NCBI GenBank assembly: GCA_051294375.1
Contig: CM119269.1
Span: 6,247,919 to 6,311,918, forward strand
DNA from: Paraspadella gotoi
Lineage: Eukaryota > Animalia > Chaetognatha
Length of the DNA: 64,000 nucleotides
Reading direction: 5' to 3'
A program made the translations under genes and the position numbers. This document shows positions 3,872 to 62,110 of the stretch, piece by piece (the first letter of the stretch is position 1; each line of letters opens with the position of its first letter). The notes below the pieces were generated by a model. That model searched no databases. It was not told the origin of the DNA and worked only from the letters and a program-made list of their open reading frames with translations.

Positions 3872-4177
3872 TCTTCAACCCTTCGTCATCTCACACACAT
3901 CCCCCAAAACCATACCACCCCCCGCTCACCCCTAATCGTCTCCTCACTCTGATGTCTACAATAGAGTCGCCGACTCCGCCCGCCTCCACCTCCGCCGCCG
4001 CGTCACGAAGATCTCGATCCCGCACTGGCTGGAGGTCGACAGACCGACCGGTCCCGTCGAGCCGGCAGCCCGATCGGCTTGGTCCCGGCTGGCTAAAGTC
4101 GGGCACGAATGTTGACGCTTGAATTTGTTGGGGTTGGGGAACGGCATCCGGCCGGGCTTCTGTACCTGGGAGGGAGA

Positions 4178-4250
<73 letters not shown>

Positions 4251-4477
4251 ATAAAACGTAATACATGAGCAAGAATCGAAATAAACTTTTCTCCCTTCGT
4301 CGCTTTAATGCGGAATGAAGGTGAGTAAGTCGATTTGCATAACGGCGAGACTTTCTCTACTCTCTCTCTCGGACTAAGTTCCGATCAAGGTCGAATAGCG
4401 AGTCATAAAAACGCGTTAAAAACGTTCGTAACCTGGAAACGGGGAGAGGAGAGGGTGAGAAAGAGAGAGAGGGGGGG

Positions 4478-4560
<83 letters not shown>

Positions 4561-4639
4561 AGTTGATTTGTCTCGTTCATTGCGCGAGTTTCGTCACCAT
4601 TGCGCGCGATGTGTATACTATAAGGGCGGAATGACCGGA

Positions 4640-5050
4640 GAAAGAAGAAAGAAATTGAGGGAGGACGGAAGAGAGCGAGGAAAGAAAGGAAAATAAGAAG
4701 AAGGAAGGAAGGAAGGAAGGAAGGAAAAGGAAGGAAGGAAGAATGAAGGAAGAAAGAAGAAGAAAGGAAGGAACAGGAAAGAATGGATGGATGGATGGAT
4801 GGATGGATGGAGATGGTATGGATGGATGGATGGATGGATGATGGATGGATGGATAGAAAGAAGGAAATGATTAAATGACCTGACTGAACGAAATTAAAAG
4901 TGAATGAAGAATGAATGAATGAATGAAAGATGAATGAATGAATGATGAATGAATGAAAGAATGAATGAATGAATGAATGAATGAATGATGAATGAATGAA
5001 TGAATGAATGAATGGATAATGAATAAATAAATAACTGAATGAATGAATGA
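4640..5050. repeat. compound microsatellite (GGAA)n/(GGAT)n/(GAAT)n
   Basis: Direct reading. Confidence 0.9.
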
Positions 5051-5097
5051 TGGTTAAATAATATATTGATAGATGACCGAAAAAAAAGACTCTACCT

Positions 5098-5394
5098 GCA
5101 GGAACTCCCCTAATCGTGGCGGAGGCTTCCATCGAACTCTTCTCCGGATCATCTTGGCGGTGGAGGCGGAGACGTCCGTCGCTTCGGCGGTCCGCCTCCA
5201 CCCGGCGCCACGATGACTTCGGCATGCGTCGACGAGATAGTCCGGGTCGATCATCGGGATCGCCGCCGGGACCGCAACGCCGTCCCACCAGTCCGCCCAT
5301 GCCGAAGCTGATCCAAGGCGTCGTCGCCTCGAGAGGATCGTCGAGAAAAGTCGCACGGGGAACTGCGACGCGACCAGAGGTCCGGCGGAGGATC
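5098..5394 (-). CDS. probable internal coding exon of an unidentified gene (may splice to the duplicated exon at ~3956-4166)
   Basis: GC-rich open frame ILRRTSG...GEFLQ between acceptor ccgccttcag and donor GTAGAG; no family recognised. Confidence 0.4.
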
Positions 5395-5636
5395 TGAAGG
5401 CGGAAGGGGAATGGTCAATTGGGAATTAATCTTACAACATTAATAGGAAGCCATTTACTTACAGTCGCCGGACGTAAGATAATTTGGGTTAGCCATTAGG
5501 TATTAAGTTATGTGATTTGGTTAGTAAGGCGTTTTAAATTTAACTTTAATTAAAATTCTAAAAAGTGAGGAACGAACAACATTATCTTAATGAACATTTA
5601 TGTAATAAAAAAATTTGTAATAAATTTTACAATTTA

Positions 5637-6017
5637 CGCAGTAGGCCATATTTATACTATACTAAACCAATAAATGTTAAAATTTCAAAACAGTTTTTTT
5701 CTAAGTATTTTTTTGGCAGATTTGGTTAGTCATAAAATTGATAAAAAGAAATATAACTCTTTTAAAAAATTCCTTCATTAGGTGGGTCAAAAATTAGAAA
5801 AAGCTATATTTTAAGCTGAAAATTAACTTTTATAATATTAATATAGTTTTTTTAATTTTTAACCTACTTAATGAAAGAATTTTTAAAATGATTTATATTT
5901 TCTTTATCAACTTTGGACGAGGAATTCAAATCTGCAATCAAATTAAGAAAAGCTTTATTTTTGAAATTTTCGATTTATAAAGGATAGTACTATATATATA
6001 AATATAGCCTACTGCGC
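5637..6017. mobile_element. degenerate MITE
   Basis: Terminal inverted repeats CGCAGTAGGCCATATTT / AAATATAGCCTACTGCG; a similar end recurs at ~24426. Confidence 0.55.
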
Positions 6018-6603
6018 GAAAATTAAAAAACATAAAATTAATTTTTTTACAAATTAATGTTCACTGATGGTATGTTGTTCATAATTGNNNNNNNNNNNNN
6101 NNNNNNNNNNNNTCTACATTCTAAAAGTTTCGTTAAATACAGTGAAATTGATAGCGGATAAGGACATAACAATTGCCAATAGCAAATGCGTGCGTATTTA
6201 AAAACGCACTAGACATTTTTTAAAAACATCCACGACGCCTTTTATTTGCTTAAAATATTTTTTTTTTCTTCATTGTATATAAAAGTAAAAAAAAAACCAA
6301 AAAAACTTTTGCCACTTAATTTTATAATCTTCAAATCGTTCAGACAGGGCAGGACGACGTTAAGTTTGTCTCGATTTATCTATAGTATGTAGTAACGAAA
6401 GGAAAATGGCGACGTTGAAAGACGAAATCGGAAGCGTGTTAGAGAAAAGCAAAGTTGCACTGTGAGTCTTGCGGAAAGAACGAAGTCTGATGAAAGGAGA
6501 AAGCGAAACTCGAATCATAAAAGAGGGCGGGAACGGTTGCCGACTGATTACTGACCAGGGAATTGTGCGGGAGGAGCAGAGAGAGAGAGAGAAGAGAGAT
6601 GAG

Positions 6604-6653
<50 letters not shown>

Positions 6654-7104
6654 ACGAGGCAAGAGGAGAGAGAGAGGAGTTGGAGAGATTGAATGTAGAG
6701 ATTCGGGAAACTTTAAGGGGACCCTTGGGAGTCAGAGGCGGGGGCGGGAAAATGAGGATGAGAAAAGTTTATGTTAATTTAGGATTTTTTTCCCCTCATA
6801 CATGAACGACTTTTGGCGACTCGCGACTTCATGGAAAGCAAAAGTTGAGAGGTCATAGATCGAAGTTATTAGGGAGTTGATTGATAGAGGAGGGAAAAGA
6901 GGGAGATAGACTAACGAGACAGAGAGAACGTCAAATATTAAAGATAAGGAGAGAGAACAAAAAAATAAAAGAGTAAGAGGGAAAAAGGAAAAAAAGGAGA
7001 GTTAGGTCAAAGATCGAGAATATTAGGAGACTCGAAACAAGGAAGCCCAGTGATGTTTAGCGGAGAATGGGGGGAGGGGAAAAGGGGAGGGAGGGAAGAG
7101 GGAA

Positions 7105-7146
<42 letters not shown>

Positions 7147-7605
7147 TGAATGAATATGCGGATCGGTCATGGGCACACACTCCGCGCGCCTATACGACCT
7201 TTTAATCTTCGTACAAAGGTTAATGTAAAATTAAAGAACTCAATAATTTAAGTCACAGTACTGAAGACAGCTTTTGAAAAATTATAGTTCCACAACTCAA
7301 AAACGAAAAACGAAAAATAGTTTACGGTTTGCAATAGAGAAAAAAAAACAAAAACAAAAAACAAAAAATAAAGTCAATTCGCTCAATAAAATGTTCGGAA
7401 TAAGAAACGATCCAACTTGAAGAAAACCCGTAGAAACTTGCAATTGCAAAGCATTCTTGTCTTCTCTTCCCCGACTACTATGTTCTCCTCTCTATCGCTC
7501 TCTTTATCGTATTGATTGTTAATTCTCTTTCCAAAGAATATTTTTTTCTACACACTGCCCTTAATCAGGCCTTAATCATCAACATCATCATCATCATCAT
7601 CATCA

Positions 7606-7653
<48 letters not shown>

Positions 7654-7985
7654 TTTCAACCCTTCGTCATCTCACCACCCAATCCCCCAAAACCATACCA
7701 CCCCCCCCGCTCACCCCTAATCGTCTCCTCCATCTCGATGTCTACAATAGAGTCGCCGACTCCGCCCGCCTCCACCTCCGCCGGCCGCGCGTCACGAAGA
7801 TCTCGATCCCGCACTGGCTGGAGGTCGACAGACCGACCGGTCCCGTCGAGACCGGCAGCCCGATCGGCTTGGTGCCCGGCTGGCTAAAGTCGGGCACGAA
7901 TCGTGACGCTTGAATTTGTTGGGGTTGGGGAACGGCATCCGGCCGGGCTTCTTGACCTGGGAGGGAGGGGAAAGAGAGGAGAGAG

Positions 7986-8023
<38 letters not shown>

Positions 8024-8286
8024 AAGGAGAGAGAGGAGAGAGAGAGAGAGAGCATAAAAACGTAATACATGAGCAAGAATCGAAATAAACTTTTCTCCCT
8101 TCGTCCGCTTTAATCCGGAATGAAGGTGAGTAAAGTCGATTTGCATAACGGCGAGACTTTTTCTCTATCTCTCTCTCCGACTAAGTTCCGACTCAAGGTC
8201 GAATAGCGAGTCATAAAAACGCGTTAAAAACGTTCGTAACCTTGGAAACGGGGAGAGGAGAGGGTGAGAAAGAGAGAGAGGGGGGC

Positions 8287-8343
<57 letters not shown>

Positions 8344-8882
8344 AGAGAGAGAGGAGAGAAGAGAGAACAGAGAGACAGAGAGAGAGAGTTGATTTGTCTC
8401 GTTCATTGCGCGATGTTTCGTCCCATTGCGCGCGATGTGTTATAGGGCGGAATGACCGACAGGGATCAAAAAGGTAATTTGCACGACGGAGAGGACGGGA
8501 ATGTGAGTGCAGCGCTGTTATGCGGGAAAGGTGCATTTGTGCGCGCAGAAGGAAAGTAGAGGAAAGGGTGATAAATACCATATTATTATATTTTAATCAA
8601 GATAACAAGAATAGATAAGATACGAACAACTAGAGGTACAAAGATATTAAGTAAAAGAAACAAGAACAAAAAAAAAAGACATGTAGAGATAGAATAGTAA
8701 ACTGGAAAGAAGTATACCACATAAAAGAAACGGTTATCTCTCTTCTCTACTTTTAGAATTTTTGTATGTAACTTTCACTACGCCTTATCAATGGTTAGGG
8801 ATTAGGGTTTAAGGGTAGGAAATATGGTTGAAGATTAGGGATTAAAATAGTAGCCGAATCTTCGGGCTCCCTCGAATCCGAT

Positions 8883-48929: not shown

Positions 48930-49350
48930 TTTATCTTAAAATAAAAAATTAGGGTACTTTATTATTCGACGTCCGCAACCAACCTTAGGCACCACCATTT
49001 AATTTTGTTTTCCCTCAAGCGTCGAGTCTCAGTTTGCGCAATAATATACATTTTTTTGTTAAGTATTATAAATTTGGCTAAATTTTTCTTTCGCCGACCG
49101 CGGTTATGGCGGCTTTTAAAAAACATTTAACAATATTTATTTTTAAAAAAACAAATTATTTAAGTACCCTAACCCTTAACCACCCCTAATCCTAAACCAC
49201 CCATAAATCACCCTTAACCATAACCCCGGTCGGCGAAAGTAAAAGTAACCCATAAATTTTATAATTTTATAATAAATAATAATTTATTAAAATTTATTTT
49301 GTTTGAGGTAGAAAATGAATTGTTTACGTACGAGTTTTTCATAAAGAAAC

Positions 49351-49973
49351 TATGGTGGACTAAAATCCACCAACCGTTCATCAGCGGCCATTGGTGCCGG
49401 AGGCAAGTCATTCGCCTTCCAACCCAAAGGTCCGTTGGTCGCCTAGCAGTTAAGAGGGACGGGGCGCTTAACCCGCCTGTAACTGTTACAGCCTGATCCG
49501 AAGCTCAGGGACTGCTTATATTGAACGGTTCTGTCACTCACACAAAATAATTACTTTCATTGGTGAGCCCGACTTCCGTACACAACAGCAACAACACTTT
49601 CAGGCGACATGCCTCAACCTGGCGATGCTCTTTCCGCCCACAACACATCAGGCGACATGCCTCAACTTGGTGATGAACTTTCCACCAACAATAATTCACT
49701 GAAGAGACGCAAAAGACTTCTCCCTATGGGAGGGGGGGCATGTAAGGTGGACTAAAATCCACCAACCGGTCATCAGCGGCCATTGGTGCCGGAGGCAAGT
49801 CATTCGCCTCCCAACCCAAAGGTCCGGTGGTCGCCTAGCAGTTAAGAGGGACAGGGCGCTTAACCCGCCTGTAACTCGGTGTTACAGCCTGATCCGAAGC
49901 TCAGGGACTGCTTAATAATGCTTATATTGAACGGTTCTGTCACTAACACATAATAATAATTACTGTCTCTTCA
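49351..49973 (+). mobile_element. TRIM (miniature non-autonomous LTR retrotransposon)
   Basis: LTRs 49351-49559 and 49741-49973 (3' LTR TG...CA; 5' LTR starts TA, ends CA), PBS-like TGGTGAGCCCG at 49561, PPT GGGAGGGGGGG at 49728-49738, AAAC TSD on both sides, 181-bp non-coding interior. Confidence 0.88.
49445..49516 (+). ncRNA. twister-like ribozyme motif (P5 permutation) in the 5' LTR; second copy 49837-49912
   Basis: AGCAGTT-AA-GAGG-GA-CGGG-GCGCT-TAA-CCC-GC-[CTGTAAC/GTTACAG]-[CCTGA-TCCGAAGC-TCAGG]-GACTGCT maps onto twister P5/P2/T1/UAA/T2/P3/P4; P2 is imperfect and P1 minimal. Confidence 0.6.
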
Positions 49974-49975
49974 AA

Positions 49976-50160
49976 ACATAAATTTCGGACATGTTTCAGC
50001 TTCAATGTAAGCCTTCATCAGCGCAAAAACGAATTGATTTGTAAAACAAATATTTTTACAGACTCTTTCAAAGTCTGTAAAAATATTTGTTTCACAAATC
50101 AATTGGTTTTAGCGCTGATGAAGGTTTACATTGAAGCCTAAAAATGGCCGAAATTTATGT
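49976..50160. mobile_element. Penelope-like inverted repeat with a minimal hammerhead ribozyme motif on each arm
   Basis: Minus arm CTGATGA-A-GGCTT-ACATTG-AAGCT-GAAA-CATGTC; plus arm decayed CTGATGA-A-GGTTT-ACATTG-AAGCC-TAAA-AATGGC; ~88-bp arms. Confidence 0.75.
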
Positions 50161-50319
50161 AAGTCGCTCATAAGAAGCGAAAAAAAATAACCGACCGCAA
50201 AATCCCGGTCGGCGAATGTAAAAATAAGCCAAAATTTAAATGAATAATAATAATGAATTAATAATATTAAAGTTATAAAATTTTCGATTTTTCTTAGACG
50301 ACAAAATTCTTTTACTCAC

Positions 50320-55602: not shown

Positions 55603-58600
55603 ATGCAGCGAGGCGGAAGACGAGACGATCCGCCGACCTTCTCCCCCGCCGGCGCCAAAACTCCCGACACTGGCGCCACCAGAAGGTCTTCCCGACGACG
55701 CGGTGGCGGCGCCGACAAGACCGATGACGAAGCACCCCTCCCCGCGGGAGAGTCTTCCTCCTCCTCCTCCACATCCTCCTCTGCCTCCAAGCGTCTGCAC
55801 GGCAGAGGCGTCCCCTCGACTCCTGGGGACCCACTGCTTAAGATCGACGAGCGAGCCGCTCTAATGGAAACCGACGCTTTCGTGAAAAGCCCCGATGCGA
55901 AACTTCCCAAGATGGCGCCGGTGGCGTCCGCGACAACGTCAATGCCGGAAAAGCGAAAACTGGATACGAAGAACGTCGGCGGACGGAAAAAACCCTGCCT
56001 GAAGGAGACGCCGAGTCGGGAGAAGATCGTCGAGGATGTCGACGCTGAGACCGACGAGATGAAAGTCGGAAACTATTCCTCTCCCATGGATGAAGGAGAA
56101 GAGGACGAGAACGAAGACTTAACGCAGGAAAAGCTCTTGTCTCAGGTTAACCTTGTTCAGATTCCCGCCGCCTCTTCCATCGGAAGTGCCCCTAACAGCG
56201 TCCCCAGCAGCGCCGGTAGCGCCTGTAGCACCTCCCTCTGCTCCTCTCCCGGGGACCGCCCACCGGCCTCATTCCCGCCGGCAACGAATCTCGACTCCGT
56301 CTCGTCTTCCGTTGCCAATTCGTCCGCCTCGCCCTTCTCCCCGCTCATCTCCGCCGCCTCTTGCTCACACAGTCAAGGGACACAGACTAACGAGTTCCAC
56401 CGTAAAATCCCTTCCCGCGCCCACCCACCGCCGGGGCTGCAGGAATGGCTGGAAGTCTTCAAGGGCTGGAGCCACGCGGAGAGGCTAATCTCGTTGGATC
56501 AGTTGGTCGAGTTGTGCGAACCCCAACAGGTTGGCGAAAAGAATGGAGGGATAAGTTTAAATTCAATTAATTATTATTGGTTTCTTAAGACATTTAATAA
56601 GGTGCACTTTCATTTAAAATTACATGGTGACAATTTTACAAGCGCCGGTAGAAATACGCTGTCATTTGCAAACCAGTGGTTATTTCATTGATTTTAAAAA
56701 TTAGTTGAGTAGAACATATTAAAGTCATTTTTGTGTTCAAATTTTATATTGATCAGTTAAGATATGCCTTGGCAATGAGTGGAGAAAGTTGGCTTGTAAA
56801 ATCGGGTTTCATTTTTTAACTCACTTTTTTAGATTCAATTTTTTTTCTTATTTTCAGTAAGTTTTCTGAAGAAATTTAAAATAAAATAATATTAATATTA
56901 TTATCTTCTGAAAGCCCTTTCAAATCTAAAGAGAATGACATATTTGCAAATACTTTAGTATATAATTTAACCGGCCTAGCTTTAATTTAATTAGGATATT
57001 CAAAAACAAGACATCTTTCCAAAAATCAATAGCTGGAGGGTAAATTTAAGATTTTTATCAAATTGTAATTGGCTATCTGAAATCTTTTTTCGGGCTCTTT
57101 CATAATACTTATATAAATAATAATATTTTATGTTATAATAATTTAATCAGGTCATATATTTTTTAAAAAAATTTGATATTTTAGATAATTAACTTTTGAC
57201 TCTCTTAATTGAACCAAGGCTGGGCAGCTTAATTTTTATGTTAGAGCTTTCGTAAGTATATCATTCTCTTCATTTTTTTAAGGGCTTTCTGAGGATATTA
57301 ATATTGTTAATATCTTAATAAATACTTTGTTTAAAAAAGAGCTAAGAGTTGAAAAAAAAATTGAATTTAAAAACAGTGAGTTGGAAAATGAAACCCGATT
57401 TTACAAGCCAACTTTCTCCACTCATTGCCAAGGCATATCTTAACTGATCAATATAAAATTTGACTTTAATATGTTCTACTCAACTAATTTTTAAAATCAA
57501 TGAAATAACCACTGGTTTGCAAATGACAGCGTATTTCTACCGGCGCTTGTAAAATTGTCACCATGTAAACGCTTTGGATGCGAACTTTTTTTTAAAACTA
57601 CATAATTTCCTTTTTTCCTGTAGTAGCGATAAACCTAAATCACTATTGTTTTTCCTCCGTTTTCCCCACCATTAGGTGAAGCACGTGATGACGGTGATCG
57701 AGCCGCAGTTTCAACGCGACTTCATTTCTCTCCTTCCGAAAGAGTTGGCTCTCTACGTTCTCTCGTACCTCGAACCTCGCGATTTGGCAAGGGCCGCCCA
57801 GACCTGTCGCTACTGGAGGCTCCTATGCGAAGACAATCTCCTGTGGAAAGAGAAGTGCCTCGAAGCTGAAATCTTGGAGCCCCTGAGAATATTTTTGCCG
57901 GCTTCCGCGGCGCCGGATCGAACCAGGACCGTCTCTGAGTGCAGCGGTCTTTCCGGCGACGTTTTTCCGGCTCGGTGTTTAACTTTCCATGAGGGGCCGC
58001 CCGAAGCCGGAATGCGCATCTCGCCTTCGCCTCCCTTGATCACGGATTTTCCATTATACGGGCGCCAACGACGACCCTCGTCCGTCGGCGGCAGTGGCGA
58101 GTCGCACACTTCCGCGGCGACGTCGACACATTCTCCTCCTTCGCCGCTGCAGCCGTCAGAATGGAAGCGAGCCTATATGCGGCAGCACGAGATCGAGATG
58201 AATTGGCGTCGCCGGCCGCTGAGGCACCCCAAGACCCTCAAAGGCCACGACGACCACGTGATCACCTGTCTGCAGTTCTGGGGAAATCGCATCGTGTCCG
58301 GCTCGGACGACAACACGCTCAAGGTTCGAAATTTTAGTTCAGTGAATAATGAACATATTGATAATATTGCTTTCGCTAAAAAATTCTTATTTCTCTAACC
58401 AGGTGTGGTCGGCCGATACCGGAAAGTGCCTACGAACGCTCGTCGGACACACGGGCGGCGTGTGGTCTTCTCAAATGAAGGACAACATCATCATAAGCGG
58501 TTCTACGGATCGAACCTTAAAAGTCTGGGACGCGGACACCGGGGATTGCATCCACACGCTATACGGACATACGTCTACAGTGCGTTGCATGCACATCCAC

Positions 58601-61280: not shown

Positions 61281-62110
61281 ATGTCTGCGGCGGGGGGATA
61301 CGCTAACCCCAACGCTTATCCCGAGAGCGAGGAGCAGTCGCGGCTGCGGTTTCAGGTCGAACTCGAGTTTGTGCAGGTGAGATTGTTTTGTCTGTAGCAT
61401 CTGTAGATACATATTTCATCTTCCAGTTCGCACAAATATTGCTGATTATTGTAGATAGCTCACCTCGGTTCAGCTTGACACGGTTTAGATAAGTTCAGTG
61501 GATGTTGAAGTGTAAATAAAGTTCTTGAGAAATCCTGCTCAGTCTGGCTAATCAATAAACTTGTCACGTGATCTGTATAAGAAAAGAAAGGTTTATACAA
61601 AGTAATAATCACTGATGATTAATGATATTTAATCCTAATCATACGTACGGCTTTATTAAATAATCGCGAACGAAATAAGTTTATTTTTGATCCAACGTTT
61701 AGTTTATGTCCAACATTGCCGCCTCCTTTCTTCCTCCCTCTCATCAGTGCCTCGCCAATCCCAATTACCTTAACTTTTTGGCGCAACGAGGACACTTTAA
61801 AGACCGCGCCTTTGTCAACTATCTTAAGTACCTCTTGTACTGGCGCAAACCCGAATACGCGGCTTATCTCAAATATCCCCAGTGTCTCAATTTGCTAGAG
61901 CTGCTCCAGTACGAGGGATTTCGTACTGAGATTATCAACACTCCCTGCGCCAAGTTCATCGAAGACCAACTTTTGCTCCACTGGCAGCACTATCCGCGGA
62001 AGCGATTAAAGTTGCTGGAGCAACAAGACGCAGAGGCGGCTGGAGTTCCTTCTGAAGCGCCGGCTCTCGAGGCCCTAGAAGAGGCGCCCGCTCCGACCAA
62101 CGGACAGTAG
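61281..62110 (+). CDS. MED31: Mediator subunit 31
   Basis: Exons 61281-61376 (..RLRFQVELEFVQ) and 61748-62110 (CLANPNYLNFLAQRG..YLKYLLYW..YLKYPQCL..LLHWQHY). Confidence 0.97.

Follow-up and report, generated by a model that had tools for sequence, protein, structure and literature searches.

A miniature Helenus-type LTR retrotransposon with a twister-like motif in each LTR: a candidate for retrozyme-like propagation

The window, i.e. the whole stretch of 64,000 nucleotides analysed here, contains a genuine miniature LTR retrotransposon without coding capacity at 49351-49973. Each of its two LTRs carries every core element of a twister ribozyme in the type-P5 order, save a normal P1 helix. We furthermore found a tRNA-derived segment in both LTRs that is absent from the earlier note on this DNA, and based on this segment we place the element in the Helenus/TRIMp3 group. 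It is thus filed as a Helenus-type (RNA polymerase III) TRIM plus a twister, which lies outside Rfam family RF02684 and outside retrozymes as they are defined. Taken as a whole, the best explanation is that the twister would cut the RNA to a unit that is circularised and copied by a Gypsy partner, in the manner of a retrozyme; we give this complete reading about an even chance.

Anatomy of the element, its family and its insertion site

The features of the element and of its surroundings are as follows.
48935-50319, minus strand: host intron, probably in the 5' UTR, of a DEAD-box helicase gene; 1385 nt, GT-AG (CT..AC on the plus strand), joint 48934->50320 in sequencing run X9
49347-49350, no strand: left target-site duplication AAAC, from the sequence and from empty-site joints in paralogues of the host repeat
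49351-49973, plus strand: TRIM element, 623 bp, with two LTRs and a non-coding interior
49351-49559, plus strand: 5' LTR, 209 nt, begins TA and ends CA
49384-49442, plus strand: tRNA-derived segment of the 5' LTR, with a 7-pair acceptor-like stem (z -2.4) and an A-box-like region
49561-49573, plus strand: primer-binding site (PBS) of tRNA-Trp type, with one T between LTR and PBS
49600-49695, plus strand: tandem pair of 48-nt units, 81% alike, in the non-coding interior
49728-49738, plus strand: polypurine tract (PPT), from the sequence
49743-49973, plus strand: 3' LTR, 231 nt
49776-49834, plus strand: tRNA-derived segment of the 3' LTR, with a 7-pair acceptor-like stem (z -4.1)
49974-49977, no strand: right target-site duplication AAAC, from the sequence

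The two LTRs, the PBS, the PPT, the AAAC duplication and the non-coding interior with its 48-bp tandem duplication had all been described in the earlier note and are borne out here. The longest ATG open reading frame in the element has 48 aa. The LTRs align to each other in 5 blocks, in which 202 positions match and 7 are substituted. The PBS is identical at 12 of 13 nt to the tRNA-Trp PBS of Helenus-2_SyJa and Gypsy-32_NVi in the part of the supplement of PMC10886601 that was available. No second copy of the element was found within the 64-kb window.

To describe the family, we used contigs from public sequencing runs, which form unphased piles and are not aligned genomic copies. Nine runs of one organism, from three studies, contain the stretch, and our analysis covers 6 of the 11 listed runs. 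Over the LTR bins, the summed contig depth is 3.1-4.8 x 10^5 in run X1 and 1.5-3.1 x 10^5 in run X5, whereas the flanking gene has 34 and 20-39, respectively; summed contig depth is not a copy number, yet the family is plainly very large in the genome.

These contigs also delimit the element. Integrated copies start with TA (49351) and not with TG, and 139 and 93 contigs with differing flanks break off at this position; likewise, 118 and 80 contigs have loose ends with varied flanks at 49973. The ends of the element are thus fixed. Empty-site contigs of the surrounding host repeat bridge the element (49338->49974, 49319->49974 and 49325->49980), and the first of these contains AAAC once. An ATG stands between the PPT and the 3' LTR (49739-49743), while integrated copies start with TA; the left end thus seems to be trimmed by 2-3 nt, resulting in the termini TA...CA. 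In most family copies, the PPT is one G longer, at 49739. In comparison to other copies, the 5' LTR of the window copy is short of 4 nt in the P3 loop and of some bases at its 3' end, as read from an insertion behind 49483 and from joints 49969->49556 in family contigs. We also considered these joints as evidence of circles and rejected them, since 5' LTRs whose ends are complete, or tandem arrays, account for them. The 3' LTR of the window copy has a 10-nt duplication after 49914 that is absent from other copies (loose ends at 49914 and 49973).

The assignment of the LTR segments to a tRNA was made by eye, and so was that of a Gly-type anticodon loop at 49416-49422 in the 5' LTR. All three family variants in the acceptor strand of the 3' LTR preserve pairing. 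The A box of the window copy deviates from TRGCY and the B box is absent from both of its LTRs (sites 49435/49436 and 49827/49828); neither ARAGORN nor Rfam gave a tRNA match on this B-box-less copy. Many family contigs have 13 additional bases with a B box at 49435/49827. At 49824, the B-box form accounts for 108, 73 and 13 loose ends, and it recurs among those at 49432; of the 16 listed records with a start no later than 49806, 11 show gaps of 13-14. The same 13-nt segment is missing from both LTRs of the window copy, which means that a lineage without the B box has undergone at least one round of copying. A second B-box form is present in runs X9, X1 and X4. At loose ends at 49827 in runs X4 and X5, the consensus leaves the tRNA-like arm for a sequence other than P5; these continuations may belong to related SINEs or to subfamilies that lack the ribozyme.

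In run X9, one contig leaves out 48935-50319, whose ends on the minus strand are GT-AG. The element is thus intronic and antisense to the DEAD-box helicase gene, which is probably DDX21. The earlier note had placed it antisense in the probable 5' UTR intron of DDX21; the orientation, the intron and the helicase hold, and the position in the 5' UTR is probable. The TRIM is inserted into the left end of a foldback repeat at 49976-50160 (two 89-nt arms, 91% alike, 7 nt apart), which is itself repeated in the genome and for which all Rfam miRNA rows were below threshold. Foldback and TRIM are in turn bracketed by a second repeat (49050-49277 and 50198-50253), made of inverted and direct copies round a CCTAACC-like minisatellite. 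The three are nested insertions in one 1385-nt intron. Elsewhere in the window, we observed an FBXW7-like F-box/WD40 gene (57676-58398), whose named relatives are animals, and a MED31 gene (61703-62110). Near-duplicate low-complexity stretches at 439-2535 and 3891-8596, recognisable by repeated translations of open reading frames, are either a local duplication or an assembly artefact.

The twister-like motif

The motif occurs at the equivalent place in both LTRs.
49445-49516, plus strand: twister-like motif 1, P5 order, predicted cut 49469/49470; P2' at 49454-57, GA 49458-59, T1 49460-62, U/AA 49469-71, P2 49472-74, T2 49475-76, then P3 and P4, with L4 at 49497-49504
49463-49468, plus strand: P1 segment GGCGCU, copy 1, 6 nt, self-complementary
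49837-49912, plus strand: twister-like motif 2, with an A.C middle pair in T1 (49853), predicted cut 49861/49862
49855-49860, plus strand: P1 segment, copy 2, 6 nt, self-complementary

Every pair of P5, P2 (3 pairs with one bulged A), P3, P4 and T2 is valid in both LTRs, and T1 is perfect in the 5' LTR, with an A.C mismatch in the 3' LTR. The catalytic and pseudoknot positions are all present (A+1, A+2, the general-base G, T1, T2 and L4), and in both motifs L4 has the form U-NNN-AA-GC closed by P4. The fold that had been proposed before stands except for the length of T1, which had been given as four pairs and is best read as three (CGG/CCG), with the fourth G closing a G.U pair at the base of P1. 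That G.U pair is the only P1 pair of the monomer, in agreement with the previous remark that P1 is nearly absent. The self-complementarity of the P1 segment had not been noted: as a dimer it forms 6 pairs. The GGCGCU self-duplex has -8.3 kcal/mol and a hairpin is impossible; 21 of 4096 hexamers pair with themselves as well as GGCGCU does, or 1 in 16 when the ends are taken as fixed.

We compared the motif to null sequences with a pseudoknot-aware descriptor that demands GA, T1, N/AA, P2, T2, P4 and L4 and ignores P3 and P5, and that was written after the motif had been seen. On the plus strand of the window, it finds one perfect site (GA at 49458) and one with a single T1 mismatch (49850); on the minus strand it finds none. 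Matched Markov nulls yielded 1 and 3 perfect hits per 60 Mb, i.e. 0.002-0.006 per window. The descriptor recovers 15 of 32 phage loci. P3 (6-8 pairs) and P5 (7 pairs) lie outside the descriptor and add 13-15 pairs at places typical of twisters.

Covariance models gave a different picture. The Rfam twister search that had been proposed as a check found no match at E<=10 in either LTR, and both motifs stay below the 37.6-bit threshold of Twister-P5 (RF02684). As a positive control, 20 twisters were scored in 18 of 20 phage loci taken from a set of 32. The hammerhead families of Rfam had no match in the element at E<=10. We also built two models from phage twisters selected by pattern, which biases both. 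Model R1 missed both LTR sites; model R2, built from phage twisters only, ranked them first and third of 6 in 128 kb, in the wrong register and without significance (E 1.3 and 2.7). The alternative register suggested by R2, with UAA inside P3, was rejected as it lacks T1, P2 and T2.

The motif departs from the Rfam consensus in three ways. First, the 5' strand of P2 has 3 nt, which the earlier note had listed, together with the bulge, as a caveat. The structure is as described there, but the 3-nt form is natural: 17 of 18 phage matches with a 3-nt P2 score above the Rfam gathering threshold. Second, the first T1 pair is C-G, which is natural but rare, being present in 1 of 20 pattern loci (L071:150-220, a phage Twister-P5 with 45.0 bits); Rfam gave no hit in 19 of the 20 viral loci with the C-G pattern. 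Third, the P1 segment has 6 nt, compared to a minimum of 14 nt among 44 phage examples, of which 17 close the base of P1 by G.U as the LTR motifs do. In a large test of natural twisters, imperfections of P1 and P2 did not lower cleavage and P1 was dispensable, according to the part of the source available (PMC11662667). The twister fold lies 9.5 and 5.2 kcal/mol above the free fold in the two motifs, compared to at most 7.0, with a median of 1.9, for the 44 phage twisters, with pseudoknots not counted, and the motif segments fold no better than shuffles (z -1.7 and -1.3). We conclude that the twister reading is well supported by structure, by the null test and by precedents for two of the three deviations. 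The motif is very probably derived from a twister and probably active in the family.

Several scans for relatives gave candidates that we rejected. The 16 bare motif matches from metagenomes are chance matches, as none passes the descriptor and none has an Rfam hit or a BLAST match. A single viral locus that matches the window's own letters with a 4-nt P2 fails the descriptor. A viral scan with a rice/Schistosoma-like P5 pattern returned 0 loci, and BLAST against phage sequences had no match. As a side observation, type-P5 twisters form arrays in phage DNA, with six within about 4 kb of one viral contig (L052 and L063-L066; 38702-42557) and three within about 1 kb (L025).

Between 49796 and 49930, the variant list for four runs has 13 rows, at 11 places, with at least 2% in one run or more, and it contains no indel. 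At position 49853, G makes up 96.1, 98.9 and 99.6% of the family depth. The mismatch that had been held against the 3' copy (CGGG>CAGG) is thus real in the window copy, but the T1-breaking A is a minority state particular to that copy. Six variable places lie within the motif: two each in P1 and the P3 loop, one at the end of P5 and one at an A of a linker. This count leaves out 49853 and 49876, where the window copy has the minority letter. None of the 6 falls on the 35 core positions (P about 0.02, with site classes drawn by the analyst and coverage dropping beyond 49900), and 4 of the 6 are CpG sites. No compensatory changes were seen in these contig piles of low variation. Conservation of the twister core lends weak support to function, because the family varies little. 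Two further runs are not independent support: run X10, from a second organism, covers the PBS side and the LTR end and not the ribozyme region, and run X11 has one 200-nt contig spanning 49847-49914.

Proposed propagation and its alternatives

The element is likely transcribed by RNA polymerase III, which would start near 49384. There is no TTTT on the plus strand of the element, where four AAAA runs occur, and the first downstream TTTT is at 50053. Transcription by Pol III from the 5' LTR would thus meet no internal terminator and run through both motifs. Among window tiles of 590 nt, 32 of 1244 lack TTTT, and it is absent in 29% of shuffles of the element itself. Cleavage at U/A in both motifs (49469/49470 and 49861/49862) would then free the following RNA.
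49470-49861, plus strand: predicted unit RNA between the cut sites, 392 nt

This RNA would have no terminal repeat, so that rebuilding the LTRs would need a circle: a host RtcB-type ligase could close it, and minus-strand DNA primed at the tRNA-Trp PBS could continue only round the circle, rebuilding the LTRs as the Gypsy partner copies the unit back. RtcB has circularised hammerhead retrozyme monomers in vitro (PMC7229834), and reverse transcription of a circle is the route proposed for plant retrozymes (PMC7761336, PMC4918200), each as given in the parts of these sources available. The circular minimum free energy of the 392-nt unit is -120.8 kcal/mol (z -3.5, 60 shuffles), with 55% of it paired. 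A ligated circle junction would read identically to a genomic LTR in contigs. Run X9, which we guess to be an RNA run as it holds the spliced contig, contains family sequence, and its contig depth is uninformative on level, strand and circles. RNA that is uncut or cut once retains the terminal repeat on which reverse transcription depends and so needs no circle. We regard circle-based propagation as evenly balanced.

Each motif might cut alone with its one-pair P1. Alternatively, because GGCGCU is self-complementary, the two LTRs in one transcript could swap strands and share a 6-pair P1 made of the two GGCGCU segments, such that each cut site would use the GA/T1 strand of the other LTR. The swapped dimer has -177.5 kcal/mol compared to -176.0 for two monomers; the free fold, at -200.9, is about 24 kcal lower (pseudoknots not counted), and the pairing probability of the swapped P1 is 0.0. 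The energy model thus neither favours nor excludes the dimer. For the window copy, cleavage should be better at 49861/49862 than at 49469/49470 under the dimer model, and the other way round under the monomer model. The hammerheads of some animal retrozymes act as dimers in the available part of PMC7229834, and we put forward the strand-swapped twister tentatively, as well short of an even bet.

The main alternative is that the twister is active but merely forms the ends of a linear RNA, with no circle. Cleavage in the 3' LTR would make up for the lack of a Pol III terminator, or cleavage in the 5' LTR would trim the 5' end, and the remaining terminal repeat of about 86-90 nt would serve ordinary strand transfer. 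The lack of TTTT is consistent with this, and the coordinates show that a single cut leaves sufficient repeat. By eye, many Helenus LTRs in the available sequences have a T run behind the tRNA-like part, where the element has the ribozyme, and twisters form the 5' ends of Perere-3 RNA (in the available part of PMC8501958). However, the LTRs are mutual copies, and both motifs should therefore cut unless their context blocks one; the self-complementary P1 segment would moreover couple both cuts. We consider this alternative unlikely.

We judge it similarly unlikely that the motif, though of twister origin, has no function in a family that moves as an ordinary Helenus TRIM. The motif could have arrived in the LTR with a tRNA-headed SINE or another piece of a retroelement and then lost P1; an origin of Helenus through SINE insertion has been proposed (PMC10886601, in the part available). 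A P1 far below the natural range, the unfavourable folding and the missing Rfam score would fit such a history, and a young burst varies little whether the motif is used or not. Yet P1 was dispensable in the twisters tested in the source cited above, and nearly all of the family depth has intact catalytic and pseudoknot positions, with frequent variants located in loops and stem ends. That the likeness is due to chance and that the LTR hairpins serve packaging or transcription is very improbable: the descriptor post-dates the sight of the motif, the covariance models do not score the site and the segments fold like shuffles, but the null rate is low even before P3 and P5 are counted, and the phage-only model ranks both LTR sites near the top, albeit without significance.

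We retain a cleaved and circularised unit as the preferred reading for the family. The window copy itself is probably a weak member, with no B box in either LTR, a T1 mismatch in the 3' motif and an orientation antisense to the host gene. In its most far-reaching form, the preferred reading would make this the first animal and the first twister-based LTR retrozyme, a Pol III-driven element with a palindromic-P1 double twister and an RNA of about 400 nt that RtcB closes into circles; this full combination appears rather unlikely.

Comparison with known systems

LTR retrozymes are known from plants with hammerheads only, and animal retrozymes lack LTRs, in the parts of the sources available (PMC7761336, PMC7229834, PMC11722881). 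Similarly, the available parts of PMC6765202, PMC10085705, PMC11722881 and PMC13725137 describe LTR retrozymes as plant hammerhead elements and contain no case like the present element, while PMC7761336, as far as available, mentions truncated twisters in RTE elements. Among titles and the starts of abstracts in openly licensed PMC articles and bioRxiv, we found no description of a twister in an LTR element or of a dimeric twister. If the proposed propagation is true, a route through circles evolved anew, using a different ribozyme and a Pol III promoter, a ribozyme can stand in for a Pol III terminator, and a dimeric twister would parallel the double hammerhead. Furthermore, a P1-less, P5-ordered twister that is missed by Rfam suggests a hidden class in animal repeats.

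The closest relatives are the Helenus TRIMs (TRIMp3; Kojima 2024, PMC10886601), for which the following rests on part of the paper and its supplement. Shared features are a length below 1 kb without coding sequence, two LTRs with a tRNA-derived segment, PBS and PPT, a 4-bp target-site duplication (in animal members), a Gypsy-type PBS including tRNA-Trp and a high copy number. Helenus LTR segments have the B box GGTTC; the family of the element has a B box, whereas the window copy does not. Three Helenus LTRs in one part of the supplement also start with TA. The difference is the ribozyme: none is described for Helenus, whereas the element has about 70 nt of twister-like RNA after the tRNA-like part. 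In the available text of the paper, 'twister' occurs 0 times and 'ribozyme' once, in a reference, and a search of the available consensus file for four L4 loops revealed nothing twister-like by eye, in a format whose line breaks may hide motifs.

The element likely works like a retrozyme. Like plant LTR retrozymes, it is of a kind with these features: both are non-autonomous, with a non-coding interior, a 4-bp target-site duplication, PBS, PPT and dependence on Gypsy, and both have a motif of self-cleaving type at an equal place in the two LTRs, here predicted (PMC4918200, in part). In the plant elements, the ribozymes are type III hammerheads and the primer is tRNA-Met (PMC7761336, in part), in contrast to the twister-like motif and tRNA-Trp found here. 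The plant elements are also larger and their circles have been shown by experiment, as far as the sources were available, whereas here the host is an animal, the promoter is tRNA-derived and the circle is predicted. With metazoan non-LTR retrozymes (PMC7229834, in part), the element shares an animal host and a unit RNA a few hundred nt long, bounded by tandem ribozymes; those retrozymes, some of which work as dimers, have type I hammerheads and lack LTRs, PBS and PPT.

With respect to the ribozyme, type-P5 twisters (RF02684) have the same strand order, U/AA site, GA, T1, T2 and L4; their P1 is a hairpin of at least 14 nt in phage examples, in contrast to the 6-nt self-complementary segment and closed P5 found here. 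The available part of the Naiad paper (PMC8557442) does not mention twister, and the available part of its supplement contains no twister with the L4 loop of the element. The twister T-variants of Perere-3 RTE elements (PMC8501958, in part) are likewise located in an animal retroelement and have a weak P1, a similar start of P3 and a similar L4. Perere-3 is a non-LTR element with a single ribozyme of type-P1 order at its 5' end, whereas the present element has two, in P5 order and within LTRs. Its P3 starts with CUGUA, as in 5 of the 7 S. mansoni twisters tabulated there, which hints that the motif may derive, through circular permutation, from a twister of an animal retroelement.
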